64,000 nucleotides of DNA from NCBI GenBank assembly GCA_964566055.1, contig CAZMHI010000022.1:213-64212 (forward strand). The letters run 5' to 3'. The notes under the pieces were generated by a model. That model was not told the origin of the DNA. It was given only the letters and a program-made list of their open reading frames with translations, and did not search any database. This document shows, piece after piece, positions 44,221 to 60,496 of this stretch. Origin of the DNA: an uncultured Rhodospirillaceae bacterium. GTDB lineage: Bacteria > Pseudomonadota > Alphaproteobacteria > Rhodospirillales > UBA2165. The translations under genes and the position numbers were made by a program. Every line of letters starts with the position of its first letter. The first letter of the stretch is position 1.

Positions 44221-46203
44221 TTAGGGCTGGTTTTCCGAAACAGCGTTTGCCGTTTCCGACCGCCGATACGCCAGCACATGCCAGGCCAGGAAAGCAAAGG
44301 CGACCGCCGTGGCACTCCAATGGATGAACGGATCGGTAAAGATGATCAACAGTCCCAATATTAAACGGATGGCAATTTCCCATGCTGGCAACCGGCGCTG
44401 GTCAAAGCCGATCACCGCGCTCGAGACAAGATAAATCACGACGAGCAGGCGCGATATAATGGATAAAAACGGCAACCATTCAAATTGTGTCCCCGATTCC
44501 TCAACCAGCAGAATGACCGGATAGAAGGCAAAGACAAAGGGTACGACGAACTTCACCAGGCCAATGCGCATGGCATAAACCGCCGTCATCATCGGCGGCC
44601 CACCGGCGATTGACGCCGCCGCATAGGCCGCAATCGCCACCGGCGGTGTGATCGATGAGGCAACGCTGTAATAAAGCACAAATAGATGGGCGACCAACAC
44701 GGGTATACCCAACTTGATAATCGCCGGACCCAGAATAAGGATCACCGTGAGGTAAGCGGGCAATGTCGGAATTCCCATGCTCAGCATAAGTGCCGCCATG
44801 GCAGCTATCATCAAGGTGATCACGAGGCTGGTTCCTGTTCCTTCACCAACCAGCAAGGTGAAATCATTTGGCAATCCGGTTGCTGCCAGTACAGCAACAA
44901 TGATGCCGACCACGGCCACCGACATCAGCAACTCGCCGAATTGCCGGCCGCCATTGGCGAATGCGTTTAATATTAGGAGGGGTTTTTTCCTCACTTCCGG
45001 ATTGAGAAAGCTGAGCGGAATGAGAACCGTCAAAGCGATATTGCCGGCACCTGCGGGAGAAAACCCGTACAGCAGGGCCATCACGACCGTGGCAATCGGC
45101 ACGAACACCAGAATCAGATTATAGTAATCCTGTCGATGAACGGTAAGATCGGCGTCGGTGTCGGATAAATCCTGAACTGCTTCAATGCCGAGCCGCCTCG
45201 ATTCAAAAACCACACTGGCAAACAGACTGGCGTAGTAGGCAAGGGCCGGAATGAGCGCGGCGATAATGATGTGCAAGTAAGGAATTTCGGTGATATCGGC
45301 CATCACCAGCGCCGCTGCGCCCATAACCGGCGGCATGATCTGACCTGCGCTCGACGCCGTCGCTTCAACACCGCCGGCAAAGGCCCGATGAAATCCCCGC
45401 CGTATAATCATCGGTATGGTGATCACACCGGTAGCCACAACATTGGTCACAGCGCCGCCCGACATGGTGCCAAACATGGCCGACGAAACGATGGCCGCGT
45501 GGGCCGGGCCGCCCCTGAGCCGGCGGGTGAAATGAAAGGCTATTTTAATCAGCGAATGAGCACCGCCGGTGCGTTCAAGCATGGCGCCTAAAAGAACGAA
45601 AGGAAAAGCAGTGAATATAAGTATGGCTGTAATACCGCCGACCACGCCCTCGCCGAGATTGAACCATAAATCTTCTGCTGAACTGCTCAATATATCAAAC
45701 GGCGCCGTCTTAAAAATTCCCGGCCAAAAAGGCCCCGTGAAATAATAAAACAGGGTGACCATACCGACGATCGCCAGCGCCGCGCCCCAGACACGCCAGC
45801 AAAGTATAATGAATGCAGCTGAAGCTGCGAGCGCTATGGCGGCGTGGGAGCCATCGAAGATGACCATCGAGTCCACCATTTCCAGCATGTCGACAGAAAA
45901 CCGCCACAAGGCAAAAATAATTACTGCGAGGATAAAGAGATCGAGCGCCAGGCCCGTAACTTTCAGGTTGGGACGGCTCTTCGCCCAGCCAACCGCAAAG
46001 GAAAATTTCAAGGTAACAACGAGCACAGCCGCTCCGAGCATCAGTGGACGGACAATTTCAGGCTGGAACGGACCCATCCTTGGCACAATCCAATAGCTCG
46101 GATAGGAATTTATTAGCCCGACAAAGGCGACAACTAAACTTACGAGGTAAATCGAGTTTTGCCGCCAGTCTGCTTTTTCACCAGCCTGCGTGTCATTGTT
46201 CAT
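44221..46203 (-). CDS. TRAP transporter fused 4TM/12TM permease (TAXI type)
   Basis: GGPAHAAIVSSAMFGTMSG, EATASSAGQIMPPVMG, SITPPVA. Confidence 0.95.
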   Translation of the reverse strand: MNNDTQAGEKADWRQNSIYLVSLVVAFVGLINSYPSYWIVPRMGPFQPEIVRPLMLGAAVLVVTLKFSFAVGWAKSRPNLKVTGLALDLFILAVIIFALWRFSVDMLEMVDSMVIFDGSHAAIALAASAAFIILCWRVWGAALAIVGMVTLFYYFTGPFWPGIFKTAPFDILSSSAEDLWFNLGEGVVGGITAILIFTAFPFVLLGAMLERTGGAHSLIKIAFHFTRRLRGGPAHAAIVSSAMFGTMSGGAVTNVVATGVITIPMIIRRGFHRAFAGGVEATASSAGQIMPPVMGAAALVMADITEIPYLHIIIAALIPALAYYASLFASVVFESRRLGIEAVQDLSDTDADLTVHRQDYYNLILVFVPIATVVMALLYGFSPAGAGNIALTVLIPLSFLNPEVRKKPLLILNAFANGGRQFGELLMSVAVVGIIVAVLAATGLPNDFTLLVGEGTGTSLVITLMIAAMAALMLSMGIPTLPAYLTVILILGPAIIKLGIPVLVAHLFVLYYSVASSITPPVAIAAYAAASIAGGPPMMTAVYAMRIGLVKFVVPFVFAFYPVILLVEESGTQFEWLPFLSIISRLLVVIYLVSSAVIGFDQRRLPAWEIAIRLILGLLIIFTDPFIHWSATAVAFAFLAWHVLAYRRSETANAVSENQP

Positions 46204-46230
46204 ATTTATTGGTCTATTCTATATTAAATA

Positions 46231-46264
46231 TCAGGGCTGGCCCGGCCAAACGCGCCAGCCCTGA
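46231..46264 (-). terminator. Intercistronic hairpin between TAXI SBP and permease
   Basis: TCAGGGCTGGC-N12-GCCAGCCCTGA, 11-bp perfect stem followed by an AT-rich tract. Confidence 0.75.
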
Positions 46265-46282
46265 TCAAGTGTTGATTGGAAG

Positions 46283-47299
46283 TTAAGGAAGGAGATGGGC
46301 CGGAACTTTGAAGCCGACTTCCTTATAATATTTCGCCGCACCCGGATGTAGCTTCACGTTTACACCAGCTAAAGGATTAGACTTGCTGAGTGTCTTCAAA
46401 ACAGAGGCGCTTTTATGGATTTCATCCAGATTTGCCCACATTGCTTTGAGCATTTTGTAGATGAGATCACTATCCAAATTCTTGCGCACCAGAATAAAGC
46501 TGTTTGCAGCTGTCGTCCGGGCATCATCACCGACCTGATTATTGTAGGTGCCGGCTGGAATGGTGGCGTTTTCATTGATCAGTTGCTCGATCATAACTTT
46601 CTGCCATTTTTTGCTGTCGGCTGCTTTGCCTGCTCCGAGCAGGACAAACTTTTTCTTAGCCCCAATTTGGTTGATAACGGCGGAACCTATGGCTGTTGGC
46701 CGCAGAAACACATCAATTTGACCATCGAGCATTGCTTGCATGCCCTGCCCCCAGGGAAGCCGGATAACCTCAAAATCTTTTTTCGGCGTATAACCTGTCG
46801 CAACAGTCAAATAGGAACTGGATTGGGTGTAAAAGCCACCTGCAGGGGGACCCATATAGACGCGTTTGCCTTTGATGTCGGCCAGGGTTTTGATGCCGGA
46901 ATCTTCCCAGGCGATGATGTGAATGGCACTGGCTGGAAATCCGAATATCGCAGCCATTGAATTGTAGGCTTTATTGGCTTTCTTTTTCAGTTTTTTATAC
47001 ATGCGCTGGCCGTTTTTGAGCCATGGCGAAATCTGGGGGACGAAATGAATCATCTCCAAGTCACCCGTGCCAAATTTAAGCACTGACCGCGTCAAAGTTT
47101 GGCCGGTATTAATTTGCAGTGAGACGCCGGTTTCTCGTGGAAGAATTTTTCCGAGAACAGTCAGCAAAATTGCCGGTGAACCAGATGGGCTGGTCGCATC
47201 AACCCGCAGTATTTTGGATTGCGCATTGGCGCTTGAAGCCGCCAGGCTCAGGCCGAGAGCGACGATAAGACTAAGTGACAAAATTCTATAGGATTTCAT
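46283..47299 (-). CDS. TAXI-family TRAP solute-binding protein
   Basis: Sec signal, GIKTLADIKGKRVYMG, AMLDGQID, LHPGAAKYYKE. Confidence 0.9.
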   Translation of the reverse strand: MKSYRILSLSLIVALGLSLAASSANAQSKILRVDATSPSGSPAILLTVLGKILPRETGVSLQINTGQTLTRSVLKFGTGDLEMIHFVPQISPWLKNGQRMYKKLKKKANKAYNSMAAIFGFPASAIHIIAWEDSGIKTLADIKGKRVYMGPPAGGFYTQSSSYLTVATGYTPKKDFEVIRLPWGQGMQAMLDGQIDVFLRPTAIGSAVINQIGAKKKFVLLGAGKAADSKKWQKVMIEQLINENATIPAGTYNNQVGDDARTTAANSFILVRKNLDSDLIYKMLKAMWANLDEIHKSASVLKTLSKSNPLAGVNVKLHPGAAKYYKEVGFKVPAHLLP

Positions 47300-47494
47300 T
47301 TTATTTCCTCCCAGTAATGGTTTTGTATGACTTTACTGTCATTTTGCTAGCTAGCATAGCAATTTAAAGTTCAAATAGGTTAGCTCTTCGTTGAAGGAGA
47401 GCTGGCTTCCACCTCCGGCAATTTTTAACTCACCGTTGAAGAATAGATTAGATAATCTTATACCATCGCAGCTAATTCAAAATTGGCCTTAGGG

Positions 47495-47515
47495 TATAAC
47501 TTAGATTGATAGCCT
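47495..47515 (+). promoter_or_regulatory. LysR-2 box upstream of the TAXI operon
   Basis: TATAA-CTTAGAT-TGATAGCCT. Confidence 0.75.
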
Positions 47516-47521
47516 CAAAAC

Positions 47522-47635
47522 TTATGCCGAGGCCGAGCTTTTTAATATTGCTCTAAATCCCTGAAAAGCATGGTTGGGCAGGCTTGGGCGGCGTCTGGCG
47601 ATGCCGCCTTCAAATTTTCAAAAAGTGCCAAAATG
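47522..47635 (-). pseudogene. 3-prime remnant of a LysR paralogue of LysR-2
   Basis: Translates HFGTF*KFEGGIARRRPSLPNHAFQGFRAILKSSASA*; 28/37 identical to the LysR-2 C-terminus; Trp codon replaced by TGA at 47618-47620. Confidence 0.85.
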
Positions 47636-47681
47636 TACATGATGGTCAAGAAAAACGGCAAATTATCATATTTCCGATCAA

Positions 47682-48764
47682 CTAAAGCCGACCGCCAATT
47701 TCAGGAGAATCTGCAGCATAACGGTAGGCGCGGAAGACCCAGTTGCCGTTGGCCTTCGGAGTGTCGCCGCTGGCTGGGCCACAGGGGCCGAAGTGAGGCG
47801 AAATATATTCCCAGACAATATCGCCGTTAGGGGTAACTTCGAAAATTCGCCCCCATAGACCTTCGCATATCAAGGTATTGCCGCTCCACAGACGTTGGGC
47901 GCCGCTAATGTGATGACTAAAAAACGTCCAAGGAGGATCGCCCTCATAACGCCAGGCTTCTTCGCCGGTCTCAGGGTTAAACTCGATCACCCGCGAGCAA
48001 TGGGTTGGACTTTCCCCAAATTGTCCGTTGGCGAATAGCATAATGTTGCCGTTATCCAGCATCTTAGCGTCGTGCTGTCCTCCCCAGCCGTAGTCGTTCC
48101 TTTCCCAGCGGACTTTCTTGGTCTTGCGATCGATGATGAAGATCCAGCTGTTGCGGCGGAAACTGATTAAATAGTCGCCGTTGGCTAAAGGAAACAACGA
48201 GTTGGCATGACAGAACTCATCGCGGGGACCGAGGGGATGAATCGGATAATTCTCGATCTCCATCTCATCCTGAGCATGCCATTCCCAGACGGTTTCACCT
48301 GTCATATTGACTTCGCGGATATAGTCGCCCAAGACACCGCCATCGGACATCTCGGAACCGGGAATCCCTCCCTGCAATCGGGCGATCGAGTCAGGACGAA
48401 ATCGTTCAAAGCCAAGATAGACGGTATTGCCGTTGGGCAAGCGGTGGAAATCGTGATGTTGAGCAGGGGCGTCGCCTTGCCAAACAATGTTACCATCCCA
48501 ATCAAATTCGTGGATAATGCGCATCCCTTCACGGCTGGATGCAGTCTCCAAGTCAGCCTTCAACACCGTCAATAGATTGCCATTGGGCAAGAGCTTGCCA
48601 TACCCGGTTCGTAAATCCGTCACATCCCATTCATGAACCACCTCACCTCTCATATCGATCAAATAAGTGGTGTGGTTGTCTGCGTGGACCGGTGTGAAAA
48701 TGGTGTAACCAGGCGTTGCCTGAGCAACATCATGTTCGAGAAGGCCGAATTTGTGATAACGCAT
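47682..48764 (-). CDS. Arylsulfotransferase (ASST)-like beta-propeller, no signal peptide, paralogue 1
   Basis: QHHD, CHANS, SFRR, GQHD, FANG, SGAQRL.SGNTLICEG. Confidence 0.85.
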   Translation of the reverse strand: MRYHKFGLLEHDVAQATPGYTIFTPVHADNHTTYLIDMRGEVVHEWDVTDLRTGYGKLLPNGNLLTVLKADLETASSREGMRIIHEFDWDGNIVWQGDAPAQHHDFHRLPNGNTVYLGFERFRPDSIARLQGGIPGSEMSDGGVLGDYIREVNMTGETVWEWHAQDEMEIENYPIHPLGPRDEFCHANSLFPLANGDYLISFRRNSWIFIIDRKTKKVRWERNDYGWGGQHDAKMLDNGNIMLFANGQFGESPTHCSRVIEFNPETGEEAWRYEGDPPWTFFSHHISGAQRLWSGNTLICEGLWGRIFEVTPNGDIVWEYISPHFGPCGPASGDTPKANGNWVFRAYRYAADSPEIGGRL

Positions 48765-48893
48765 GAAGGGGTGCCTCTGAGATTATATACCGTTTTTCCA
48801 GCACAATGATAATGGTGTTAAACTTCAACACCAAATTCGAAATTAGTCTAACGTCGCCGTTTGTTAACAGCTATCCGATTATGAGTCGATGGA

Positions 48894-49799
48894 TTAGGCA
48901 TTGCCCGATCTGGGATCAGTCATGCTGCGCAATTTGTCGCCCATAAGATTGATCGACAAGATTGTTAGGAACATCCAGGCCGACGGAACAAACGTGACAT
49001 GCGGGCTGAACGCAAGTTCTGAAAAACCATCCGCAATCATTTTCCCCCAGCTTGGGGTTGGTGGTGGCAAACCAACACCGAGGAACGCCAGTGCTCCTTC
49101 AATGATAATAACCCGCGACATACCGAGTAGCATCAAAGCCAGCACGGGAATGATCACGTTTGGCAGTAATTCCCTGAAAAGAATTCGAATGTGAGACGCG
49201 CCTTGAGCACGCGCGGCGGTTACAAACTCCCGGTTGCGGTATTGAATGGTAACGGCTCTGGAAATCCGAATATCATTCACCATACCGAAAAATCCCAACA
49301 CCAGGATGATATTTAACAAATTGGCATCCAGAACGAACAATACAGCCATGACCGCGACGATATTAGGAAAGGCCAGAAGAGAATCGACGTAGATGCCGAC
49401 AGCAGCATCCGTGCGTCCACCGAAGTAGCCAGCCGACATGCCAAATACCAAGCCAAAAATCAAACTGATGACAGGTGCCGTATAAGCAATGGTCAGCGAA
49501 ATCTGTCCGCCATAAATTATGCGCGACAGCAGATCGCGACCAATAGTATCAGTGCCAAGCCAATGATCTCCACTGAAAGGGCCTAAGTATTTTTTGTCTA
49601 AGTCTGACTTCATTGGATCAGCTATCGGCAGGAAATCTGCGAATATGGCGCTAAAGGTGATAAGCAAAATCCAGCTAAGACTTAGCCAGAAAACCAGACC
49701 AAACTTTTGCGAGGCTACTTCACCTGCCTCGGACTCGTTGTCCGCCAATTCATATTTAGGGTAGAAAAGCCGGCGGAATATAGTCAATACCGCACTCAT
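48894..49799 (-). CDS. Dpp/Opp-type ABC permease (DppC-like)
   Basis: WLGTDTIGRDLLSRIIYG, EFVTAARAQGAS, LAFLG.G..PP.PSWG. Confidence 0.95.
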   Translation of the reverse strand: MSAVLTIFRRLFYPKYELADNESEAGEVASQKFGLVFWLSLSWILLITFSAIFADFLPIADPMKSDLDKKYLGPFSGDHWLGTDTIGRDLLSRIIYGGQISLTIAYTAPVISLIFGLVFGMSAGYFGGRTDAAVGIYVDSLLAFPNIVAVMAVLFVLDANLLNIILVLGFFGMVNDIRISRAVTIQYRNREFVTAARAQGASHIRILFRELLPNVIIPVLALMLLGMSRVIIIEGALAFLGVGLPPPTPSWGKMIADGFSELAFSPHVTFVPSAWMFLTILSINLMGDKLRSMTDPRSGNA

Positions 49800-50761
49800 T
49801 TACCGCCTCCCATCCGAACCCGCGGATCCAAAACGGTGTACATCAAATCGATGAAAAGATTAATCACCACATAGGCCAATGCTAAGAAGGCAACACCGCC
49901 CTGCAGGATCATGGCATCACGCCCATCAATGGAATCGATCAGTAATTTTCCGATGCCAGGAAGGGCAAATATCGTCTCCAAAATAACCGCGCCACTGATC
50001 AGGTTTCCGAGTTGCAAGCCAACAATCGTAATCAAGGTGAACGAAGATGGACGCATGGCGTGATGAAACAAAATATAGGCCGGAGACATGCCTTTTGCCT
50101 TGGCCAGAGAGATATAATCTTCCTGCAGGGTCGCCACCATATCCACCCGCAGCACCCGCATCAATATGGGAACTTCCAGCAGACCAACAACAGTGGCGGG
50201 GAGGACAAAAAACTTTAAGTTGGCGAGCGGGTCATCCATAAAAGGTATATACCCTGCGGCGGGCAGCCATTTCAGCGTGACGGCGAAAATAAAGACAAAG
50301 ACGATGGCAATGACAAATGGCGGCGCGGCGACGATAGCAAAAACAATCGCACTTAACGCCCGGTCAACCCCTCGGTTGACCCGGTAGGCAGCCCACACAC
50401 CAAGCGGAATGGCGATCAGCAAAGCGAGGGTCTGTGACAATATGAGGAGTTCCAGGGTTACCGGTAGACGAGAAACAATTTGATCCCAAACCGGAAAATT
50501 ATTGATCAATGATATGCCAAAATCACCTTGGACCAGATTGCCGAGCCAAATAAAATATCGCACGACAACGGGTTTATCGAGGCCAAGCTCGATTGTCAGT
50601 TCTTTGCGCATTTCTGCGATTTGATCGGCCTCGGCTTCATCATCTTGCAGCAGCGTATCTACTACATCACCCGGCAGAACATTCATCAGCATAAAGCTGG
50701 CAAATGTGACAACAAAAAAAACCGGAACCAGACGTAAAAGCCGGCCACGAATATATTTCAA
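49796..50761 (-). CDS. Dpp/Opp-type ABC permease (DppB-like)
   Basis: LPGD, GDFGISL, EDYISLAKAKGMS, ETIFALPGIG; TTG 50761 after a GGAGG RBS. Confidence 0.95.
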   Translation of the reverse strand: MKYIRGRLLRLVPVFFVVTFASFMLMNVLPGDVVDTLLQDDEAEADQIAEMRKELTIELGLDKPVVVRYFIWLGNLVQGDFGISLINNFPVWDQIVSRLPVTLELLILSQTLALLIAIPLGVWAAYRVNRGVDRALSAIVFAIVAAPPFVIAIVFVFIFAVTLKWLPAAGYIPFMDDPLANLKFFVLPATVVGLLEVPILMRVLRVDMVATLQEDYISLAKAKGMSPAYILFHHAMRPSSFTLITIVGLQLGNLISGAVILETIFALPGIGKLLIDSIDGRDAMILQGGVAFLALAYVVINLFIDLMYTVLDPRVRMGGGK

Positions 50762-50799
50762 CGAATCCTCCAAATACTAATTGAGCAACCCAAGCAAAA

Positions 50800-50837
50800 T
50801 TGAGGACACAATATAATCTTATATACTGTGTCCTCAA
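50800..50837. other. Intercistronic stem-loop (SBP to permease)
   Basis: TTGAGGACACA-ATATA-atct-TATAT-ac-TGTGTCCTCAA; 11-bp perfect outer stem. Confidence 0.75.
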
Positions 50838-50946
50838 AATTTTAACACCTAAGCCAATTACTTTAAACCAACTCGGTGGTTCTAAGTTTGAAAGTCGTGT
50901 GATGTAGGAATAATTTACACAACTTTCCTAGAGTAGTCGGCGCACT

Positions 50947-52506
50947 CTATTTTTTTATCCAGGCGCGGTGAGCTTTGTAGCCGTTACTCATGGGCTTCTG
51001 CATGCCGCCAACGCGATTGTTGAAGCCGAAGCTAATGACGGCGGTACGGAATGGATAATAGCGAACTTGGTCGACCAGTATTTTCTGGTAGTCGCAACTC
51101 GCCTTCATCCGCGCCGCATGACCTTTCGCACTCAGCAGCTTGTCGATCGCAGCATCGATCGCCGGGTCTTTTACATTGTAGAAGTTAGATTTACTTTTGG
51201 AATGGAAGTTAATGGCAACGACACTTGGATCGACATTGTTGCCAAAGTTGGTCCACCAAATATCGTATTTTCCACTCGTGATACCACGGTTATAGGACGG
51301 TCCTCGCGGCCCGACCTTGATAGCAACGTCAACACCGACGGCTTTCCATTGAGCCTGGAGCGACTGTGCAATAACAGATATCGTATTGATCGAGATGATA
51401 TTGAGGGTGATCTTCACCGGCTTGCCATACTCGGCCAACAGCTTTTTGGCCTTTGCCGGGCTGTATTCTGGCCACTCCATTTTCACATCTTTACAATACC
51501 AAGGATGATCCGAAGGATACATCTGGGTCGGCACCTCGGTCTCGACGCGGGTTCCGATCATGGTTATGGCCTTGCGGTCGAGGGCATGAAGCAGCGCTTT
51601 ACGTACCCGGATGTCGTTCATCGGCGCTTTCGAACTGTTGAAGCCGATGCCCCGGGGCGCAATATTTGAGACGCCGTCGAGTATCGTCGTGTTGGGGGTC
51701 TCGACCCTATCGCGCTCCGTCGTTGGCACCAGCATAACGTCGGTCTGGCCAGCCTTGAGGGCATTGAATGCATTGGTCCGGTTCGGAATGATCTGAAAGA
51801 CGATTTCGTCCAGATGCTGCGCTTTGGGGTTCCAATAATTAGGATTACGCACCATGGTGATCCTATCACCGGGTTTCCATGATTTTACCATGTAAGGACC
51901 CTGGCCGATCGAGGTTTGACCGAAGGTGCGTTTCTTCGAATTGGCGGCGACCCATCCCGGTTCTTGGACATACCAGGTAATGATCGGCATGGAGAGGATC
52001 GACTTGAAGCCCGGACTGGCCTGGCGGAAGTGAAAATCGAAGGTGTATTTATCAACCACCTCGACCCGGTCCATTGCCGGCCCCATAATACGGCGGAAAC
52101 GGCCCGCCACTTTGCTTGAGAGAAAGCGGTCAAAATGAGCCTTGTAGGCTTGGGAGGTAACTTCAACGCCGTTGGAAAATTTCATGCCCTGACGCAATTT
52201 AATCCGCCAGCGCTTGAAGTCGTCGCTGGGATCGGCCGACAACGCGGCTTGGGGAATAAACTCATTGGTATCCGCATCCCGATCGAACAGGTTGTCGTGG
52301 ATCGCGGCCAACGGATTGTTCCGGGTGTTGTTGTTGACGGGGACCCGGACCGAGTCGAAACTCTTGATATCGGTGCCGCTGTGGACGACGAGCCTGCCGC
52401 CGGTACCCGCCGGATGGTGGGCCAATACGGTTCCGGCGGACGAAAGTCCAACCAATCCAGCCGTCAGGGTAAATACAGATAGTAATTTTAAGGTTTTGTG
52501 TCGCAT
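50947..52506 (-). CDS. Dpp/Opp-type ABC solute-binding protein (family 5)
   Basis: Sec signal, LRQGMKFSNG, GQGPY...W.PG, RNPNYW. Confidence 0.9.
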   Translation of the reverse strand: MRHKTLKLLSVFTLTAGLVGLSSAGTVLAHHPAGTGGRLVVHSGTDIKSFDSVRVPVNNNTRNNPLAAIHDNLFDRDADTNEFIPQAALSADPSDDFKRWRIKLRQGMKFSNGVEVTSQAYKAHFDRFLSSKVAGRFRRIMGPAMDRVEVVDKYTFDFHFRQASPGFKSILSMPIITWYVQEPGWVAANSKKRTFGQTSIGQGPYMVKSWKPGDRITMVRNPNYWNPKAQHLDEIVFQIIPNRTNAFNALKAGQTDVMLVPTTERDRVETPNTTILDGVSNIAPRGIGFNSSKAPMNDIRVRKALLHALDRKAITMIGTRVETEVPTQMYPSDHPWYCKDVKMEWPEYSPAKAKKLLAEYGKPVKITLNIISINTISVIAQSLQAQWKAVGVDVAIKVGPRGPSYNRGITSGKYDIWWTNFGNNVDPSVVAINFHSKSKSNFYNVKDPAIDAAIDKLLSAKGHAARMKASCDYQKILVDQVRYYPFRTAVISFGFNNRVGGMQKPMSNGYKAHRAWIKK

Positions 52507-52569
52507 TTTATCTCTCCTTTGAAAACAAGACGGAAGCCTGATGATATGCAGTAGAGACTGTTGTGTTCG

Positions 52570-52698
52570 TCATTGGCCTAGCACTTCTTTCAAAGTTGCC
52601 AGACAAGTAGTGTTGTCGGTTTCTTTGCCGATCGTAGTGCGAATGAAGTTATCATATCCCGGATCAGCTTAGGCGTTAATCTGTACGCCTTTGTCTAT
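52570..52698 (-). pseudogene. C-terminal remnant of a HisC-family (class I/II) aminotransferase
   Basis: Translates IDKGVQINA*ADPGYDNFIRTTIGKETDNTTCLATLKEVLGQ*, matching the HisC C-terminal pattern G-x-x-x...PG...IR.TIG...N...L..L; internal TAA at 52669-52671; absent from the ORF track. Confidence 0.7.
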
Positions 52699-52755
52699 GG
52701 AGAAAATAGTAGATAAATTTACACCTTTTCAGCCAATTCAAAATTGGCCGAAGGG

Positions 52756-52776
52756 TATAACTCAGGTTAATAGCCT
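52756..52776 (+). promoter_or_regulatory. LysR-2 box upstream of the ABC operon
   Basis: TATAA-CTCAGGT-TAATAGCCT. Confidence 0.75.
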
Positions 52777-52783
52777 TGTACTT

Positions 52784-53674
52784 CTATTCGCTGACCGAGC
52801 TTTTCAATATGGCTCGAAATCCCTGAAATGCTGGACCAGGCGGGCTTGAGCGACGCCTGGCGATGCCGCCTTCAAAATCCCAAAATGTACCTTCATGTGT
52901 TATTTGGGTTAAACCAAATGCCTCAATTTCAGATCGGCTGTTCTCAGCAAATGTGGAAAGATAATCAGTGGACTGGGCAATGGTAATGGCCCCTAAATAA
53001 CTGGTTTCAACGGCCACATTAGGAGGAGGGAGGCTGTTGGCGGCAAAATAGGCGCCAATCGTGCTCCCGCTGGCCCGATCATCAGCCAAAACAATCCAAG
53101 GATATTGACTAAGATCCTCGGCGCTGACCGTTTTTTTTATCGCGAGCGGGTGTCCCACTCGACCAAAAACCGTGTGGCGTAACTTCAGGAGAGGCTCTTT
53201 AACGATGTCAGCGTGATCGGGAAAATCAAGGCCGCCGCAAATCATATCCAAATCACCATCGAGTAGTTGTTGGATGCTGGCATCGAACCCCGGCCCGGTT
53301 ACAGTGACCCGAACATCTGGAAATTGCTGGTGAAATTCATTGATCACGGGCGGCAGGATTGACAGCAACCAAACGGGACCGGCAGCAATGCGAAGGCGAC
53401 CACTTATGCCACTATTATGATCAGCCAATTCGGCAAGTGCATGCTGGTATTCCAGGGTCATCAGTTTAACTCGGCGGGCCAGAATTTGACCCTCAGGTGT
53501 TAAAACGACCCCGGTAGGTAAACGATTAAAAAGTGTGACGCCAAGAAGGTCTTCCAGCTGTTTTAAGCTGCGCGTTACAGCAGGTTGAGTTATGCCAATT
53601 GATTTCGCGGCCGCAGAAAGGGTTCCGGCATTGGCCACTTCGGAGAAATAGTATAGGAGCTTTGAATGTCTCAT
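52784..53674 (-). CDS. LysR-family transcriptional regulator (LysR-2)
   Basis: TLSAAAKSIGITQPAVTRSLKQLED HTH; 296 aa. Confidence 0.95.
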   Translation of the reverse strand: MRHSKLLYYFSEVANAGTLSAAAKSIGITQPAVTRSLKQLEDLLGVTLFNRLPTGVVLTPEGQILARRVKLMTLEYQHALAELADHNSGISGRLRIAAGPVWLLSILPPVINEFHQQFPDVRVTVTGPGFDASIQQLLDGDLDMICGGLDFPDHADIVKEPLLKLRHTVFGRVGHPLAIKKTVSAEDLSQYPWIVLADDRASGSTIGAYFAANSLPPPNVAVETSYLGAITIAQSTDYLSTFAENSRSEIEAFGLTQITHEGTFWDFEGGIARRRSSPPGPAFQGFRAILKSSVSE

Positions 53675-53687
53675 TGTCTGCCACTAA

Positions 53688-53781
53688 CCCCAATCCCGTC
53701 CTATAAATAGAACTGATAGCCTCCGGTCAAGTTCTCATATTACAGATCAGACGTTGATATCTAGAATATAAGGCATCCAAA
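53688..53781 (+). repeat. 94-bp inverted repeat, copy 1 (LysR-2 divergent promoter)
   Basis: 87/94 identical, ungapped, to the reverse complement of 60392-60485. Confidence 0.95.
53702..53722 (+). promoter_or_regulatory. LysR-2 box (autoregulatory/TPP operon)
   Basis: TATAA-ATAGAAC-TGATAGCCT. Confidence 0.75.
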
Positions 53782-53855
53782 GCCCGGTTGAGAAGCGCAA
53801 GTATCGTTTTGTTCCACGACTGGTAAAAAAATAAATGTAAGAGGAAGAAGTTGTC

Positions 53856-55487
53856 ATGGGAATATTGACTTCAGGTGCCGGGGCGGTAGTCAAATCAATT
53901 AAAAATCACGGTGTCGATACGGTTTTCGCCTTGCCGGGAGCCCAGCTTGATCCGCTGTTTGACGCTTTTCATGCGGAACGCGAAACCCTCAGGGTCATTC
54001 ATACACGCCATGAACAGGGCGCCGCCTATATGGCGCTCGGCTATGCCCAATCGACGGGCCGCGAGGCAGTGTGTGCGGTTGTACCCGGACCGGGTGTGCT
54101 TAACGCCGGGGCGGGGCTCCTGTCGGCCTACGGCAATGGTGCGAAAGTCTTATGCATCGGCGGCCAGATTCCCAGTAAAGCCATCGACCAGGGTATCGGC
54201 CTGCTCCATGAAATGTATGATCAAAAAGGAACCATGGCGGCGACAACAAAATGGCAAAGCCGCATTGACAACCCTGGTGATGCACCGGCTGTTATAGGTG
54301 AGGCATTTCAGCAAATGAACACAGGCCGCCAACGACCGGTCTTTGTCGAAATGGCGCCCGACATAATGGCTGCCGAGGCAGAGCTCGATATTCCGGCGGC
54401 AAACCGGGACTATGAGATGCTTGAGCCCGATCCGGATTTGGTCGAGCAGGCGGCAGCCCTAATGGGCAACGCAGAAAATCCGGCGATCTTCGTTGGCGGT
54501 GGTATCTTCGGCGCTGAGCAGGAATTGCTGGATCTGGCAGAGACCCTCCAGGCGCCGGTTTTCATGACTGCCGCCGGCCGGGGCGCCGTTGATGACAGGC
54601 ATTATCTGGCCCAAAACATGATTGCCGCAGGCCGGCAGTGGCCCAAGATTGACGCCGCTTTGGTCGTCGGCACAAAGTTCCTGCTGCCAATTTCCCAATG
54701 GGGCTGGGACGATGAAATAAAGCTGGTGCGGATCGACCCTGACCCGGATCAATCAATTAGCAAATGGATTCCAGACGTACACCTAGTGGCTCATGGCAAG
54801 CCCAGCCTGGCGGCCATTGCAGACCGGGTCTCCCGGCATAATAGATCGCGGGACTCGCGGGAAACGGAATGGCGCGACCTCCAGCAGGCTGCCGACAACG
54901 ATCTCGCCGAGACCTTGCCGGGCCTGTACGCTTATGGCAACGCCCTGCGCGAGGAGCTACCGGAAGATGGTATCGTTTGTTTTGGGGTCACTCAAATGGG
55001 CTTTTACAGTTGGTTCGGCTTTCCCACCTATCACCCGCGAACCAATCTTCAAGCCGGCGTCCAAGGCACCTTGGGGTTCAGTTTCCCGACCACTTTAGGC
55101 GTTAAGGTAGCGCATCCCGACAAAAAGGTCGTTTGCGTCACCGGTGATGGGGGCTTCATGTTTGCCAGCAACGAACTCTCCACGGCCATCCGCCACGGCA
55201 TCAACACGGTCACGCTGGTGTTCAACAACGGCGGCTTCGGCAATGTTAAGAAAAATCAGTCAGTGGATTATGGTGGGCGGCTGATCGGTTGGGATTTGGC
55301 CAACCCGGATTTTGTTAAATTTGCCGAATCCTTTGGCGCCATGGGGCTCCGCGCCTCTTCGCCTGAAGAGCTTCGGGTCGCTTTACAAAAAGCGTTTGCC
55401 GCTGATGGACCGGTAATCATCGAGGTGCCGTTCGAGGATCTACCTGACTGGCGCCCGCTACAACACGCCTACCGGATGCGCGGTTAA
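53856..55487 (+). CDS. TPP-dependent enzyme (acetolactate synthase-like, probable 2-oxoacid decarboxylase)
   Basis: ALPGAQL, TRHEQGA, QGTLG, TGDGGFMF...FNN. Confidence 0.9.
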   Translation: MGILTSGAGAVVKSIKNHGVDTVFALPGAQLDPLFDAFHAERETLRVIHTRHEQGAAYMALGYAQSTGREAVCAVVPGPGVLNAGAGLLSAYGNGAKVLCIGGQIPSKAIDQGIGLLHEMYDQKGTMAATTKWQSRIDNPGDAPAVIGEAFQQMNTGRQRPVFVEMAPDIMAAEAELDIPAANRDYEMLEPDPDLVEQAAALMGNAENPAIFVGGGIFGAEQELLDLAETLQAPVFMTAAGRGAVDDRHYLAQNMIAAGRQWPKIDAALVVGTKFLLPISQWGWDDEIKLVRIDPDPDQSISKWIPDVHLVAHGKPSLAAIADRVSRHNRSRDSRETEWRDLQQAADNDLAETLPGLYAYGNALREELPEDGIVCFGVTQMGFYSWFGFPTYHPRTNLQAGVQGTLGFSFPTTLGVKVAHPDKKVVCVTGDGGFMFASNELSTAIRHGINTVTLVFNNGGFGNVKKNQSVDYGGRLIGWDLANPDFVKFAESFGAMGLRASSPEELRVALQKAFAADGPVIIEVPFEDLPDWRPLQHAYRMRG

Positions 55488-55491
55488 GTTC

Positions 55492-56550: not shown

Positions 56551-56631
56551 CCTAACGCTCTCCTTTAATTACAGTAACTCTAAAACTAGCGTAGAATTAT
56601 TCGGGAACGTAAATTTCTTAACGAGGATGTC

Positions 56632-58131
56632 ATGAAAATCACCTTTGCCAAACCAGGATTGCCCGCAACGGGAGTTGTTGTTGTCAGCGCCGGTGCCGGC
56701 AGCAAGCTGTCCGCCTCGACAGTTAAACTTGACAAAAAATCCGGTGGGGCGCTTAGCCGGGCCATTCGTGCCAGTGATTTCGAGGGTAAGAAGGACCAGT
56801 CACTGACTGTCATGGCGCTGGCTGGCACCAAATTGGACGAGGTAATGATTGTCGGCCTTGGCAAGGCAGGTGACGTCACTGAACTGGAGATGCAACGCCT
56901 TGGCGGGCGTATTTACGCCGGTACCAAGCAGGCAAAAAAAGGCAGCGTCACGGTAGCCGTTGATGCTATCACTGAGGCCAAAATGAGTGCCGCCGAGATG
57001 GCGGTAGAAATCGCCTTCGGTGCGACCCTTCGCTCCTACCGTTTTGACAAATATAAAACCAAGCAGAAGCCGGCAGACAAACCAAAAATTAAAACTCTAA
57101 CCATACAGTGCGCCGGCTTTGCCAAAGCCCGGAAAAAATACGCTGGCCTCGCCAAGGTTGCTGAAGGAGTATTTTTGACCCGTGATCTGGTTTCAGAACC
57201 GGGCAATGTGATTTATCCCGAAAGCTTGGCAAAGCAGGCAAAGACGCTCGAAAAATTGGGTGTCAAAGTGCAAATTCTGGGTGAGTCGCAGATGAAGAAG
57301 CTCGGCATGGGGGCTTTGCTCGGAGTTGGCCAGGGCAGTGCCCGCGAATCTAAGCTGGTTGTTATGCAATGGCTGGGCGGCCCGAAAGGAAGAGGCAAAG
57401 CGGCTCAGCCGCTGGCCTTTGTCGGCAAAGGCGTCACCTTCGATACCGGAGGTATTTCACTTAAACCCAGGGAAGGTCTGGACATCTTGAAAATCGATAT
57501 GGCCGGATCCGGCGTCGTCATCGGCCTGATGAAGGCCTTGGCGGGGCGTAAAGCCAAGGTCAATGCGGTCGGCGTCATTGGCTGCGTGGAAAACATGCCG
57601 GGCGGCAATGCCCAGCGCCCGGGCGATATCGTCACCTCCATGTCCGGCCAAACCATCGAGGTCATTGACACCGATGCCGAGGGGCGCCTGGTGCTGGCCG
57701 ATGCGCTCTATTACGCCCAAACACGGTTCAAACCGAAACTCATGGTCAACCTGGCGACGCTGACCGGCGCGATCATGGTGGCGCTGGCCCATCACCATGC
57801 CGGCCTGTTCTCCAACAACGATCAATTGGCGGACCGCCTGACCAAAGCCAGTAATGAGGTTGATGAACGTCTGTGGCGGATGCCGCTCAGCAAAGATTAT
57901 GACAAAATGATCGATTCCAAAGTCGCCGACATGAAAAACCTCGCCGGCCGCCTCGGCGGCGCCATCACGGCGGCGCAATTCCTGCAACGCCATGTGGGCA
58001 AGACGCCCTGGGCGCATATCGACATTTCCGGCGTCTGGACGGAAACCGACAAGCCCACCGTGCCCGAAGGCGCCACCGGCTACGGCGTCCGCCTGCTCGA
58101 CCGGCTGGTGAGAAACCATTACGAAGGGTAG
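56632..58131 (+). CDS. pepA: M17 leucyl aminopeptidase paralogue
   Basis: VGKGVTFDTGG, KP, KIDM, DTDAEGRLVLAD, LATLTGA, WAHIDI. Confidence 0.9.
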   Translation: MKITFAKPGLPATGVVVVSAGAGSKLSASTVKLDKKSGGALSRAIRASDFEGKKDQSLTVMALAGTKLDEVMIVGLGKAGDVTELEMQRLGGRIYAGTKQAKKGSVTVAVDAITEAKMSAAEMAVEIAFGATLRSYRFDKYKTKQKPADKPKIKTLTIQCAGFAKARKKYAGLAKVAEGVFLTRDLVSEPGNVIYPESLAKQAKTLEKLGVKVQILGESQMKKLGMGALLGVGQGSARESKLVVMQWLGGPKGRGKAAQPLAFVGKGVTFDTGGISLKPREGLDILKIDMAGSGVVIGLMKALAGRKAKVNAVGVIGCVENMPGGNAQRPGDIVTSMSGQTIEVIDTDAEGRLVLADALYYAQTRFKPKLMVNLATLTGAIMVALAHHHAGLFSNNDQLADRLTKASNEVDERLWRMPLSKDYDKMIDSKVADMKNLAGRLGGAITAAQFLQRHVGKTPWAHIDISGVWTETDKPTVPEGATGYGVRLLDRLVRNHYEG

Positions 58132-58138
58132 GGCAGAC

Positions 58139-59164
58139 ATGTCAGCAGAATTAACCACGATTGAACCGACAATAGATTTCTCCGCCATAGGAGAGCACAA
58201 AGGTTTTTTGAATCTACCGCACTCCATTCACCGGTCTGGTTCACATAACATACCAATACCTGTGGTGAGTTTTAAAAATGGGACAGGCCCGACTGTCTTG
58301 CTCACCGCCGGCACCCATGGCGACGAATATGAGGGCCAGGTCACCCTGACCAAACTGGTCAAGGAAATCACGCCGGACCGGGTCACTGGACAGATCATCA
58401 TCGTGCCCATGACCAACTTTCCTGCTGCCAAAGCCGGCCTCCGAACATCGCCCATCGATGATTTAAATTTAAACCGAGAGTTCCCCGGCGATCCATTTGG
58501 AACCCCAACCCGCCAAATCGCTCACTACGTTGAAACTGTTTTAATGGAGATGGCGGACTACGCCTTCGACATCCATTCCGGTGGATCATCGTCGCATTAT
58601 CTTACGACAATTTTGTTTCAAGGTAGCAAAACTGACGAAAAAAAGCAGGCCGAGCTAACCAAAATGGTGGAGGCAATCGGCGCCCCTTATGCTCTTGAAT
58701 TGCCATCGGGTGGCGTTAAGGGCAGCCGAGCTTCCATGTCTGCTGCTGCACGCCAGGGCACCATCGGCATCAGTGCCGAATTTGGCGGTTCTGGGACAGT
58801 AACGCCAGAAAGTCTTGAAAGCTGTGAAGTTGGTGTACGGCGTTATTTAAGCCATTTGGGCGTATGGACCCCCGAGACACCGCCATCAGTCGCCAAACCA
58901 GGAGGCACAGAATTTTTTGATGGGACCATAAAAAATCTTGATGTTCATGCCGAACTGAGTGGTTTGTTCGAACCGGTCGCCAAACTTGGTGACCGGGTAG
59001 AGATTGGCCAGACGGCTGGATTTCTCCATCACCCGGACACGCCCTGGCAAGTTGCCGAGGAAATAAAGTTTGAAGCCACGGGCGTGGTCATGTCCAAGCG
59101 AATTCCCGGATTAGTCGAACGTGGAGATGGCTTGTTCAAACTCGGGGCACCGGTCGCAACTTAA
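58139..59164 (+). CDS. Succinylglutamate desuccinylase/aspartoacylase family deacylase (DoeB-like)
   Basis: AGTHGDEYEG, NLNREFPG, DIHSGG, AEFGG. Confidence 0.9.
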   Translation: MSAELTTIEPTIDFSAIGEHKGFLNLPHSIHRSGSHNIPIPVVSFKNGTGPTVLLTAGTHGDEYEGQVTLTKLVKEITPDRVTGQIIIVPMTNFPAAKAGLRTSPIDDLNLNREFPGDPFGTPTRQIAHYVETVLMEMADYAFDIHSGGSSSHYLTTILFQGSKTDEKKQAELTKMVEAIGAPYALELPSGGVKGSRASMSAAARQGTIGISAEFGGSGTVTPESLESCEVGVRRYLSHLGVWTPETPPSVAKPGGTEFFDGTIKNLDVHAELSGLFEPVAKLGDRVEIGQTAGFLHHPDTPWQVAEEIKFEATGVVMSKRIPGLVERGDGLFKLGAPVAT

Positions 59165-59229
59165 ATCCAGGCGTAGGATTAAAGTCCTTAATGATTTCAC
59201 GCTAGGGCCTCAAAGTCGCCGTCAAAAAA

Positions 59230-60360
59230 TCAGGTGGATATTTTGGCTAACGTTTCCAAGAACCTGTCATTCTGTTCCGGACGGCCCGTCGTGACGCGGA
59301 GGGATCCGTCGGATGAAATGCCTAAGGAACTTTTTACAAAAATGCCTGTTTCCCTGAGTTGGTTCTGTACGGCGACAGCCTGATCCATTTGATCAAAATA
59401 GATACAGGTAAAATTACCGCCTGATTTGAAGAATCTGAAGCCTCGCGCCGCCAGTCCCTTTTCGACCCGGCTTTTCTCGCGCTTGATCGCCTCCAAATAG
59501 GTCGCCTTGTGATCCTGGTCCCGCCACGCAGCGAGAGCAGCTTTTTGGGCCAATAGTCCGACATTGAATACCGTGTCGGCGCTGGCAAAACGGCCGGCGA
59601 ATTCCGGGGAATAACAGATGCCATAGCCAACCCTCATGGCGGCCAATCCGTATGCTTTGGAAAACGTACGAAGAATTACATATGGCCGTCCAGCCGCCTC
59701 TAGAATTTTCCAGCAGTCTGGAAAATCGTTGTAGCTGCTGCCGAATTCACCATAGGCCTCGTCGATAACAAAAAGCGACTCGTCGGACGAAGCCTCGGCG
59801 ATTGCCGTCAATTCATCGGCTGTAAAATAGGTGCCCGTGGGATTGTTGGGACCACAAAGATAAATTAGACGCGGTTTCTGCTTAACGGCGCGGCAAAAAA
59901 CCTCGGCATCGTATGTCAGATCGTCTCCATAGGGCACACGGACAACGTCTCCCCCGGCCACCCGGGTTAGAATTTCCACGATTGGGAAACTTGGCTGCAA
60001 GGTGACGACTTTATCGCCGGACCGAATACAAAGGTCGATGATCGTTCTCAATATCGCTTCCGAGCCATTACCGAACAGTAACCGGCCACCGTCAACATCA
60101 AGGCCGGCGCTGAGCTCTTCGCGCAAAATTGTATTGGTATTGTCGGGATACAAGTTGACGCTTGCCACCGCTTCGCTGATTGCTTCAATAGCCTTTGGGC
60201 TCGGGCCATATAGATTTTCATTACTGCCCAGTCTGAGCACTTCGATTTCCGGGTTTAACCGGGCAACTTCATCATATTTGATACCGGTTTTATAGGGTGG
60301 CAGATCGGTAATTTCGGGCCTGAAGAATGCCATTGGATCTATTTGGGATAGATTGCTCAT
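59230..60360 (-). CDS. HisC-family PLP aminotransferase (possibly aromatic amino acid aminotransferase)
   Basis: LGSNEN..GPSP, YPD, NGSE, PNNPTG, DEAYGEF, RTFSKAYGLAAMRVGY. Confidence 0.9.
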   Translation of the reverse strand: MSNLSQIDPMAFFRPEITDLPPYKTGIKYDEVARLNPEIEVLRLGSNENLYGPSPKAIEAISEAVASVNLYPDNTNTILREELSAGLDVDGGRLLFGNGSEAILRTIIDLCIRSGDKVVTLQPSFPIVEILTRVAGGDVVRVPYGDDLTYDAEVFCRAVKQKPRLIYLCGPNNPTGTYFTADELTAIAEASSDESLFVIDEAYGEFGSSYNDFPDCWKILEAAGRPYVILRTFSKAYGLAAMRVGYGICYSPEFAGRFASADTVFNVGLLAQKAALAAWRDQDHKATYLEAIKREKSRVEKGLAARGFRFFKSGGNFTCIYFDQMDQAVAVQNQLRETGIFVKSSLGISSDGSLRVTTGRPEQNDRFLETLAKIST

Positions 60361-60391
60361 TGTTGTCCCTCCGCGGTTAGGTAACCGAGTT

Positions 60392-60485
60392 TTTGGATGT
60401 CTTTTATTCTAAATATCAACATCAGATCTGTAATATGAGAACTTGACCGGAGGCTATCAGTTCTACTTATAGGAAGGGATTGGGG
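60392..60485 (-). repeat. 94-bp inverted repeat, copy 2 (promoter of the aminotransferase)
   Basis: 87/94 identical to 53688-53781 in opposite orientation; contains the LysR-2 box. Confidence 0.95.
60451..60471 (-). promoter_or_regulatory. LysR-2 box upstream of the aminotransferase
   Basis: TATAA-GTAGAAC-TGATAGCCT on the minus strand. Confidence 0.75.
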
Positions 60486-60496
60486 TACCGGAAGAC

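Follow-up and report, generated by a model that had tools for sequence, protein, structure and literature searches.

In a gene cluster of an uncultured marine Rhodospirillaceae bacterium (GenBank assembly GCA_964566055.1, contig CAZMHI010000022.1), four transcription units are probably under the control of a single LysR-type transcriptional regulator, which would act on them via portable promoter cassettes of two kinds, and this reading is well supported by comparative genomics. The window, i.e., the whole stretch of 64,000 nucleotides analysed here, carries this cluster from position 44221 onward (Table 1). The four units encode a TAXI-type TRAP importer; a Dpp-type importer with an aryl sulfotransferase (ASST)-like protein, ASST1; a thiamine pyrophosphate (TPP)-dependent enzyme with a second ASST-like protein (ASST2), an M17 peptidase (PepA) and a deacylase; and a HisC-family aminotransferase. 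A single LysR regulon is plausible since the cassettes are conserved in five LysR-bearing genomes and absent from three genomes that lack the regulator, and since the promoter geometry is typical of this class of regulators. The comparison covered the window genome, the related genomes G007, G008, G011, G014 and G022, the genomes G001-G003 of the same genus, and three metagenome contigs (L001, L109 and L113).

A 21-nt box upstream of four transcription units

A sequence-only reading of this DNA, which preceded the present analysis, had noticed the motif TATAA-N7-T(G/A)ATAGCCT at four positions, upstream of the TAXI-TRAP, Dpp/ASST1, TPP/ASST2/PepA/deacylase and aminotransferase units, and had proposed that these form one LysR regulon. 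Both the motif and its placement are borne out. When searched as TATAANNNNNNNTRATAGCCT with a tolerance of two mismatches, TATAA-N7-TRATAGCCT is still found only four times in the window, each time without any mismatch; shuffled sequence yields a mean of 0.51 matches, and none of 100 shuffles reaches four. They are moreover the only exact copies in the whole assembly, which comprises 110 contigs (4.48 Mb, 49.8% GC) and in which the window is contig C22. The boxes precede the start codons of the TAXI protein, the family-5 binding protein (SBP_bac_5), the TPP enzyme and the aminotransferase by 196, 250, 134 and 91 nt, respectively, and TAT-N11-ATA, the T-N11-A interrupted dyad expected of a LysR-type site, can be read in each of them.

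Further members of the regulon were sought elsewhere in the genome with the regular expression and with a weight matrix built from 15 sites, and neither scan yielded any. The matches with one or two mismatches that were inspected, on contigs C31 and C37, lie within open reading frames (ORFs). The weight matrix scores the four boxes at 26.9-30.7 bits, the next site at 24.9 bits and the remainder at 19.6 bits or less. The best outsider (C31:2781-2801, TATAAAAAAAACTGATACCCA), which is the sole near-site beyond the cluster, is located in a 510-aa ORF just ahead of an internal ATG; as about 0.3 such sites are expected by chance, it is probably a fortuitous match.

Table 1. Features of the LysR-linked cluster, with positions in the window; bit scores are followed by the model cut-off in brackets where one applies
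Feature	Position	Strand	Remarks
TRAP fused permease	44221..46203	-	Second gene of TAXI-TRAP operon; TIGR02123, 425.6 bits (320.65); Pfam DctM
TAXI-family TRAP solute-binding protein	46283..47299	-	TIGR02122, 147.5 bits (84.35)
Boxes, 21 nt each	47495; 52756; 53702; 60451	+; +; +; -	In A1, A2, B1 and B2
Type A copy 1 (A1)	47452..47515		Box 47495-47515; predicted to drive TAXI-TRAP
A1 leftward promoter TTGAAT-17-GATTAT	47475-47480 and 47452-47457 (plus-strand hexamers)		Read by eye
A1 near-palindrome GCTAATTCAAAATTGGC	47471-47487
Dead 3' end of second lysR copy	47522..47660	-	About the last 45 codons; in-frame stop replaces a Trp codon
ASST-like protein 1 (ASST1), 360 aa	47682..48764	-	Last gene of Dpp-type operon; Pfam PF05935, PF14269
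Two Dpp/Opp-type ABC permeases	49796-50773 and 48894-49799	-	Pfam BPD_transp_1, BPD_transp_1_N
Family-5 solute-binding protein (peptide/nickel/opine type)	50947..52506	-	PF00496, 258 bits; below every NCBIfam equivalog cut-off
HisC-type aminotransferase relic	52576..52698	-	Residues 332-372 (last 41 codons), in-frame stop; tblastn 76% to L001 aminotransferase
Type A copy 2 (A2)	52713..52776		Box 52756-52776; leftward promoter TTGAAT-17-ATTTAT; predicted to drive Dpp-type/ASST1 operon
A2 perfect 17-nt palindrome GCCAATTCAAAATTGGC	52732-52748
LysR-type transcriptional regulator, 296 aa	52784..53674	-	Pfam HTH_1 and LysR_substrate
Type B copy 1 (B1)	53702..53767	+	Box 53702-53722, invariant block to 53746; divergent to lysR; predicted to drive TPP-ASST2-PepA-deacylase
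B1 promoter ATTACA-17-TAGAAT	53739-53767
TPP enzyme, uncharacterised PRK08266 subfamily	53856..55487	+	NF006122, 670 bits (571)
ASST-like protein 2 (ASST2), 352 aa	55492..56550	+	Starts 4 nt past TPP stop
M17 leucyl aminopeptidase PepA paralogue	56632..58131	+	NF002077, 697.7 bits (471)
AstE/AspA-family N-acyl-amino-acid deacylase, DoeB-like	58139..59164	+	PF24827; TIGR02994, 236 bits, below cut-off (402.7)
HisC-family aminotransferase	59230..60360	-	TIGR01141, 275.7 bits (276.55)
Type B copy 2 (B2)	60406..60496	-	Box 60451-60471; promoter ATTACA-17-TAGAAT 60434-60406; predicted to drive aminotransferase

Two types of promoter cassette

The boxes are embedded in cassettes of two types, A and B, whose common sequence is limited to the 21-nt box. 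B1 and B2 share 92.6% identity along 95 nt, and the promoter scan called ATTACA-17-TAGAAT at an equal offset in both. The type B box is centred at about -64 from the predicted transcription start (near 53774 for B1 and 60399 for B2), with a second conserved block over the -35; this downstream block is found nowhere else in the genome. In nine aligned type B copies, about 50 consecutive positions are nearly all invariant (CCTATAA..AGAACTGATA...GGTCAA.TTCTCATATTACAG), while the flanks diverge and coding DNA is only 74-86% identical. Type B would be a classical divergent LysR-type promoter, in which the TAT-N11-ATA box lies upstream of a weak ATTACA-17-TAGAAT promoter. In the window, lysR (minus strand) starts at 53674, the B1 box spans 53702-53722 and the TPP gene (plus strand) starts at 53856, and this divergent layout with a shared box is also present in every locus of the relatives that holds a close LysR orthologue. 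On the lysR side, the type B box precedes the start codon by about 30-50 nt and separates the gene from its likely promoter, a placement suggestive of autorepression.

B1 and B2 (53688-53782 and 60390-60485) additionally form a 95-nt inverted repeat flanking the 6.6-kb segment from the TPP gene to the aminotransferase gene. There is no sign of an inversion between them, as the gene order matches that of L109. A mobile-element origin of these repeats was considered and ruled out: the cassettes are confined to the neighbourhood of these genes, the segment between B1 and B2 encodes no transposase, and both order and orientation match L109.

Type A lies 8 nt past the lysR stop codon, with its box inverted relative to type B, and is organised leftward as box, palindrome and promoter. 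The palindrome GCCAATTCAAAATTGGC, which has no mismatch in A2 and a single one in A1, is found nowhere else in the genome and covers the -35 of the leftward promoter, TTGAAT-17-(G/A)ATTAT; from these hexamers, which were read by eye, the type A box is centred at about -58 from the predicted start (near 47445 for A1 and 52706 for A2). A1 and A2 share 80% of positions in a stretch of 76 nt, and the alignment can be extended into the 3' end of lysR, with 76% identity for all 191 nt. Across genomes type A shows a pattern of conservation like that of type B. The distance from box A to the TAXI start is also about 197 nt in G007, G011 and G008, and in G022, whose LysR is only 59% identical, both the palindrome and the TGATAGCC half-site can still be made out on either side of lysR.

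The cassettes accompany the LysR regulator

Both domains of the regulator score above their cut-offs (PF00126, 71.2 bits; PF03466, 103.3 bits), and the protein is under the cut-off of all named NCBIfam LysR models, the best being PcaQ (113 bits vs 304). Orthologues with 86-93% identity are encoded in G007, G008 and G011, of the same genus, and in G014, of a different genus, and one with 59% identity in G022; further close lysR copies are carried by the metagenome contigs L001 (88%), L109 and L113. The order box A-lysR-box B is kept in all genomes with a LysR identity of 86% or more. Boxes with the signature core are present in G007, G008, G011, G014 and G022, all of which have a LysR orthologue. 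Three genomes of the same genus that have no LysR orthologue (G001-G003) contain no signature boxes, but only background AT-rich matches that do not exceed the reversed-pattern control.

The system resembles classical LysR-type regulons such as those of CbbR, BenM/CatM, PcaQ and AtzR in the HTH_1 and LysR_substrate domains of the regulator, in the divergent arrangement of the regulator gene and a target operon, in a TAT-N11-ATA site that is centred near -65 of the predicted starts and accompanied by another conserved element covering the -35 of a weak promoter, and in the presence of one box at several operons. It differs from them by a second cassette 3' of the regulator gene, with an inverted box and a perfect palindrome over the -35, by the duplication and movement of cassettes among operons in close genomes, which left dead lysR fragments behind, and by a regulator that falls below every named NCBIfam model of the family.

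Copying of cassettes and decay of genes

The same cassette is found ahead of different genes in different genomes. Box A precedes the TAXI-TRAP operon in the window, G007, G011 and G008, an aminotransferase-Dpp operon in L001, and an AstE-like deacylase gene in G007. Box B precedes the TPP operon everywhere, but also the PepA-deacylase genes in L001 and the aminotransferase gene in the window. Both cassettes would thus have been copied, sometimes along with a lysR gene that later decayed, and placed ahead of different operons in different genomes.

Several gene relics are consistent with such a history. The translation of the dead lysR end next to A1, which finishes with FEGGIARRRPSLPNHAFQGFRAILKSSASA and a stop, aligns with the C-terminus of LysR and is collinear with the intact lysR of G011 and G007. 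Because A1 carries this dead end, the TAXI-TRAP operon was presumably once directly beside an intact lysR, as is still the case in G007 and G011. Compared with G011, the window has an insertion of about 5 kb, encoding ASST1, the two permeases and the binding protein, that is flanked on both sides by a copy of box A with the lysR end. In L001, the lysR located between box A and box B has decayed until only its two ends are left, with both boxes intact. The aminotransferase relic lies in the 250 nt between A2 and the binding-protein gene, and in relatives the corresponding intact gene heads the Dpp-type operon; an intact copy, 79% identical, is located at the very end of contig C66 (24793-25902). 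Similarly, a 64-codon relic of an ASST2 orthologue is found in G014 (L024, 7839-8037), between the genes for alanine dehydrogenase (Ald) and a TauE/SafE-family protein. A different ASST paralogue is encoded in the aminotransferase operon of G014, across lysR from this relic.

The deacylase of G007 (L137, 345-1367, contig C111) is 97% identical to that of the window at the protein level, as compared with about 89-92% for the other regulon proteins of G007, which suggests a recent exchange of this gene between lineages.

One regulon or passive copies

Several observations weigh against a regulon of four units under one regulator. The four boxes consist of two duplicated pairs, A1/A2 and B1/B2, and hence do not represent four independent events; B1 and B2 are so similar that recent copying alone could account for this pair. 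The type A hexamers are weak (8 of 12 positions), were read by eye, and fall under the threshold of the promoter scan, which therefore did not call them, and the perfect palindrome of type A could serve a second regulator. From these points it could be argued that the boxes are passive relics of segmental duplication, or are recognised by a regulator other than the adjacent LysR, so that the four units are not co-regulated. The dead lysR end that accompanies A1 fits a passive duplication, as do the duplicated pairs themselves, and the palindrome, for which type B has no equivalent, fits another binding protein. However, conservation of the boxes and of the blocks next to them far exceeds that of the intergenic and coding DNA around them, down to a LysR identity of 59%; the boxes of L001 outlived the lysR gene between them; types A and B share the box and nothing else; and signature boxes are confined to genomes that encode a LysR orthologue. 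Passive copies or a foreign regulator are accordingly quite improbable. As for the single LysR regulon of the sequence-only reading, it has gained from cassette conservation, from the co-occurrence of boxes and LysR and from the promoter geometry.

Gene content of the regulon and a proposed route

LysR and the TPP enzyme are the constant members of the regulon, PepA and an AstE-like deacylase are frequent, and a HisC-family aminotransferase is encoded in every sufficiently long locus. In the five other LysR-bearing genomes, the cassettes are almost unchanged in sequence and are found ahead of a shuffled, overlapping set of genes, for TAXI-TRAP, a Dpp-type importer, the HisC-type aminotransferase, PepA, the AstE-like deacylase, the TPP enzyme and ASST-like proteins. 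The importers vary between TAXI-TRAP, the Dpp type and, in G014, an ABC system of the Lys/Arg/Orn type. Ald is part of the regulon in two genomes, G008 (after ASST1) and G014 (after the TPP gene), from which the aminotransferase is probably pyruvate-dependent. In G014, the TauE/SafE-family gene follows the TPP gene, Ald and the ASST2 relic.

In the window, the gene calls of the sequence-only reading proved essentially right when set against Pfam and NCBIfam, with two additions: no ATPase genes for the Dpp-type importer are clustered here, and the ASSTs are only distant relatives of that family. The TAXI binding protein and the fused DctQM permease, both above curated cut-offs, together make a TAXI-type TRAP transporter, and the nearest solved structures of the binding protein are Glu-binding TAXI proteins (E 1e-24). 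A Dpp/Opp-type importer is defined by a family-5 protein, two permeases and two ATPases, and of these the operon encodes the binding protein and the two permeases. Five DppDF-type ATPase pairs are encoded elsewhere in the genome, several of them adjoining other Dpp-type permease genes, and the importer may therefore share its ATPases with other systems.

The TPP enzyme passes the PRK08266 model only and is below the cut-off for AruI, acetolactate synthases and Xsc. Its second-best NCBIfam model is the 5-guanidino-2-oxopentanoate decarboxylase AruI (NF005712, 317.7 bits vs 500). An assignment as Xsc was tried and rejected: the match to TIGR03457 breaks into two pieces of about 96 and 88 bits, and no protein of the genome reaches the cut-off of 676. 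PepA has a paralogue with 78% identity on contig C76. An N-acetyl-2,4-diaminobutyrate deacetylase is among the nearest solved structures of the deacylase, and a putative phenylalanine aminotransferase is that of the aminotransferase; overall, solved-structure searches with the binding proteins, the aminotransferase, the deacylase and the TPP enzyme returned generic relatives only. The flanking genes encode UbiD, a PaaA-like protein and an acyl-CoA ligase.

Taken together, these genes would fit the catabolism of an amino compound that is taken up free, N-acylated or peptide-bound, although this metabolic reading is speculative. The free compound would be imported by TAXI-TRAP, and its peptide or other conjugates by the Dpp-type importer, with ATPases encoded elsewhere. 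PepA and the DoeB-like deacylase would then free the amino compound from its conjugates, the HisC-type aminotransferase would transaminate it, probably to pyruvate, and the PRK08266 TPP enzyme would convert the resulting 2-oxo compound. The ASST-like propellers, presumably cytoplasmic, may carry out an accessory step, possibly the removal or transfer of a sulfuryl-type ester group via their conserved His (see below).

Other observations count against this scheme. No ATPase gene is present in the Dpp-type operon, either here or in L113 (7318-10868), and the PRK08266 subfamily of TPP enzymes has no characterised member. The aminotransferase of the window is not orthologous to the one found in the regulons of the relatives (29% identity), and the ASST content differs between genomes. 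Finally, no aldehyde dehydrogenase or other downstream enzyme is encoded in the cluster, which leaves the route incomplete.

Two ASST-like proteins from a large family

The sequence-only reading had described two leaderless sulfotransferases. The absence of a leader holds: the two proteins begin MRILQTGVTLHNQDQ and MRYHKFGLLEHDVAQ (352 and 360 aa), with no hydrophobic leader and no signal peptide, and, being short as well, they are probably cytoplasmic. Their description as sulfotransferases has to be weakened to distant membership of the ASST family, with 18-19% identity to Cpz4 of Streptomyces. ASST1 and ASST2 are 51% identical to each other, and an orthologue of ASST1 (90%) stands at the same position in G008. 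A phmmer search of solved structures with the ASST-like proteins gave no match. The AlphaFold2 model of ASST2 (pLDDT 91.7) has Cpz4 as its top fold match (E 1.6e-16, TMq 0.73, 18-19% identity), and a profile of the family finds E. coli AssT (E 2e-4) besides Cpz4 (E 2e-10). Hits above cut-off to PF05935 and PF14269, together with the fold match to Cpz4, identify a six-bladed beta-propeller ASST domain.

In AssT, His436 is transiently sulfurylated, and His252, His356, Asn358, Arg374 and Thr501 coordinate the sulfuryl group (PMC13426309). In a profile alignment to AssT (3ELQ), His436, the catalytic His that becomes sulfurylated, corresponds to H228, which is His in 34 of 35 family members, including both proteins of the window, and Asn358 and Arg374 correspond to N185 and R200, both invariant in the family. 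His356 aligns with position 183, occupied by His in ASST1 and by Trp throughout the subclade of ASST2 (17 of 35 members); the His252 region aligns only weakly. Beyond the residues of AssT, H42, QHHD 101-104, D145, E149, C297-E298, R303, R336 and R339 are invariant in the family.

The likeness to the sulfotransferases that are independent of 3'-phosphoadenosine 5'-phosphosulfate (PAPS), AssT and Cpz4 (9KF4/9KF6), hence consists of the six-bladed propeller and the equivalents of His436, Asn358 and Arg374. Unlike AssT (571 aa), the proteins described here are of about 350 aa and have neither a signal peptide nor the N-terminal beta-sandwich domain; Cpz4 likewise departs from this enterobacterial periplasmic and beta-sandwich feature set. 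Both AssT and Cpz4 differ from the family of the window with respect to the Trp that replaces His356 in the ASST2 subclade, the extra invariant residues, the 11 copies and the catabolic gene contexts.

The family has 2,247 hits and at least 595 genome loci, in Rhodospirillales, Binatia, Nostoc and Chloroflexota. The genome studied here has 11 copies, the two of the window and nine on contigs C1, C2, C12 (two), C37 (two), C63, C84 and C92. A universal neighbour was sought among 85 loci of ASST-like genes and none was found, their contexts being very varied: glutathione S-transferase genes are commonest (11 loci, mostly in Nostoc, where they are the usual neighbour), and TPP genes occur in seven loci, directly adjoining in few. 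In a phylogenetic tree, the seven ASSTs that are tied to this type of regulon fall in at least five clades, indicating that different paralogues were recruited repeatedly, and this repeated recruitment can be taken to argue for a real functional link. The association is nevertheless not strict. No ASST gene adjoins the LysR-TPP operon in L109 or on the short contig C26 of G008, a genome in which ASST1 belongs to the Dpp-type operon of another contig, and in L113 a polysaccharide-deacetylase-family gene occupies the position of ASST1.

Candidate substrates

The Ald genes and the Lys/Arg/Orn-type binding protein of the relatives point to a pyruvate-linked transamination of an amino compound, possibly a basic one. 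One candidate is a transaminase-decarboxylase route similar to AruH/AruI that would degrade a basic amino acid, such as arginine, ornithine, 2,4-diaminobutyrate or an analogue of histidine, supplied from its N-acetyl derivatives and from peptides. The ASST-like proteins would then have an ancillary function that has nothing to do with sulfate. AruI is the second-best model of the TPP enzyme (318 bits), the deacylase most resembles the N-acetyl-2,4-diaminobutyrate deacetylase DoeB, a Lys/Arg/Orn-type binding protein belongs to the importer of the G014 regulon, Ald in two regulons fits a pyruvate-dependent transaminase, and all regulon aminotransferases are of the HisC family. All these scores are nonetheless below the curated cut-offs (AruI, 318 vs 500; DoeB, 236 vs 402.7; Lys/Arg/Orn-type protein, 168 vs 256), none of the clusters contains a downstream gene such as those for guanidinobutyrase or aldehyde dehydrogenase, and the repeated recruitment of ASST-like proteins would be left without a reason. 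On balance, we consider such a route unlikely.

The known pathways concerned also differ from the cluster. With AruH/AruI, and with the Tpa-Ald-Xsc-TauE system of taurine degradation, it shares an aminotransferase followed by a TPP enzyme, together with Ald (G008, G014) and a TauE-family protein (G014) in the relatives; it departs from both by a PRK08266 TPP enzyme and a HisC-type aminotransferase, and by the addition of PepA, the DoeB-like deacylase and the ASST-like proteins. Ectoine degradation (DoeA/DoeB with a TRAP or ABC importer) also combines a DoeB-like deacylase with a peptidase-family hydrolase, an aminotransferase and a TRAP-type importer. In the window, by comparison, the peptidase is M17 rather than M24, the importer is of the TAXI type, DoeC and DoeD are missing, a TPP enzyme is present and the DoeB score is 236 vs 402.7.

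The substrate guess of the sequence-only reading, sulfated aromatic amino acids or peptides and sulfotyrosine in particular, has fared less well. According to this proposal, the regulon would degrade O-sulfated aromatic compounds by import, trimming, transamination and TPP-dependent decarboxylation, with removal or transfer of the sulfate by the ASSTs. Its support comes down to membership of the ASST family, namely the propeller fold with Cpz4 as top match (TMq 0.73) and the conserved equivalents of His436, Asn358 and Arg374, around which some circumstantial points can be placed: the putative phenylalanine aminotransferase as nearest solved relative of the aminotransferase, the aromatic-type genes of the flanks (UbiD, PaaA-like protein, acyl-CoA ligase), a TauE/SafE-family exporter after TPP-Ald-(ASST2 relic) in G014, and an ATP sulfurylase gene that adjoins TPP homologues (57-73%) in three of five loci of other Rhodospirillales contigs. 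These last loci share one backbone synteny, however, and their adjacency is thus not independent evidence. Plain desulfation would yield ordinary tyrosine, for which a dedicated aminotransferase and TPP enzyme would be superfluous. Moreover, ASST genes are absent beside LysR-TPP in L109 and C26, a deacetylase-family gene replaces ASST1 in L113, the His356 equivalent is missing from ASST2 and its entire subclade, and the ASSTs of these regulons were drawn from at least five clades of a family with 11 paralogues per genome and very varied contexts. The Ald genes of the relatives and the Lys/Arg/Orn-type binding protein used by G014 point to an amino compound that is possibly basic. Sulfotyrosine or a related compound is hence a doubtful substrate, and we regard this pathway as very unlikely.

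The backbone in question, on the metagenome contigs L110, L111 and L115, consists of genes for an S41 peptidase, ATP sulfurylase, the TPP homologue, an EamA and/or FAH-family protein, and SelA-SelB; the gene for the TPP homologue (57-73%) starts 17-40 nt past that for ATP sulfurylase.

In taurine pathways, an aminotransferase, Ald, a TPP enzyme and TauE form the classical layout. The grouping of TPP, Ald and a TauE/SafE-family protein in G014, which resembles this layout, and the ATP sulfurylase genes next to TPP homologues in other contigs might be read as signs that the regulon degrades a taurine- or cysteate-type amino-sulfonate, free or in N-acyl or peptide conjugates, or scavenges nitrogen from it, the sulfonated carbonyl product being handled by the TPP enzyme. 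Such a pathway is nonetheless highly unlikely given a TPP enzyme far below the Xsc cut-off (about 96 + 88 vs 676) in a genome with no true Xsc, aminotransferases of the HisC type and not of the class III Tpa type, TauE-family proteins that are common, functionally varied and not encoded in the window cluster, and ASST-like proteins with no obvious role.

Implications

A 2026 review describes the physiological role of the aryl-sulfotransferase family as poorly understood (PMC13426309), and no described equivalent of the present system was found in the literature on cytoplasmic ASSTs, on the Pfam accessions, on sulfotyrosine catabolism or on sulfonate clusters. It is conceivable, if improbable on the genomic evidence at hand, that cytoplasmic, PAPS-independent ASST-like propellers, a pyruvate-linked HisC-type aminotransferase, Ald and a PRK08266 TPP enzyme together form an undescribed catabolic pathway of deep-ocean Rhodospirillales for a sulfated or similarly esterified amino compound, which would be taken up free, N-acylated or in peptide form. 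If so, the LysR boxes would provide a direct handle on the natural substrate of the ASST-like family. In any case, the putative LysR regulon ties an uncharacterised subfamily of TPP enzymes to a large, probably cytoplasmic branch of the ASST family, and the attached regulator and two binding proteins offer a route to the substrate.

Regulation itself would be of an ordinary bacterial type. What the cluster may offer beyond this is a natural example of how a regulon grows, by the copying of short LysR-box cassettes ahead of new operons, sometimes together with the regulator gene, and the decaying fragments of lysR and of enzyme genes, which record the steps across a handful of close genomes, make for an unusually legible history of duplication.

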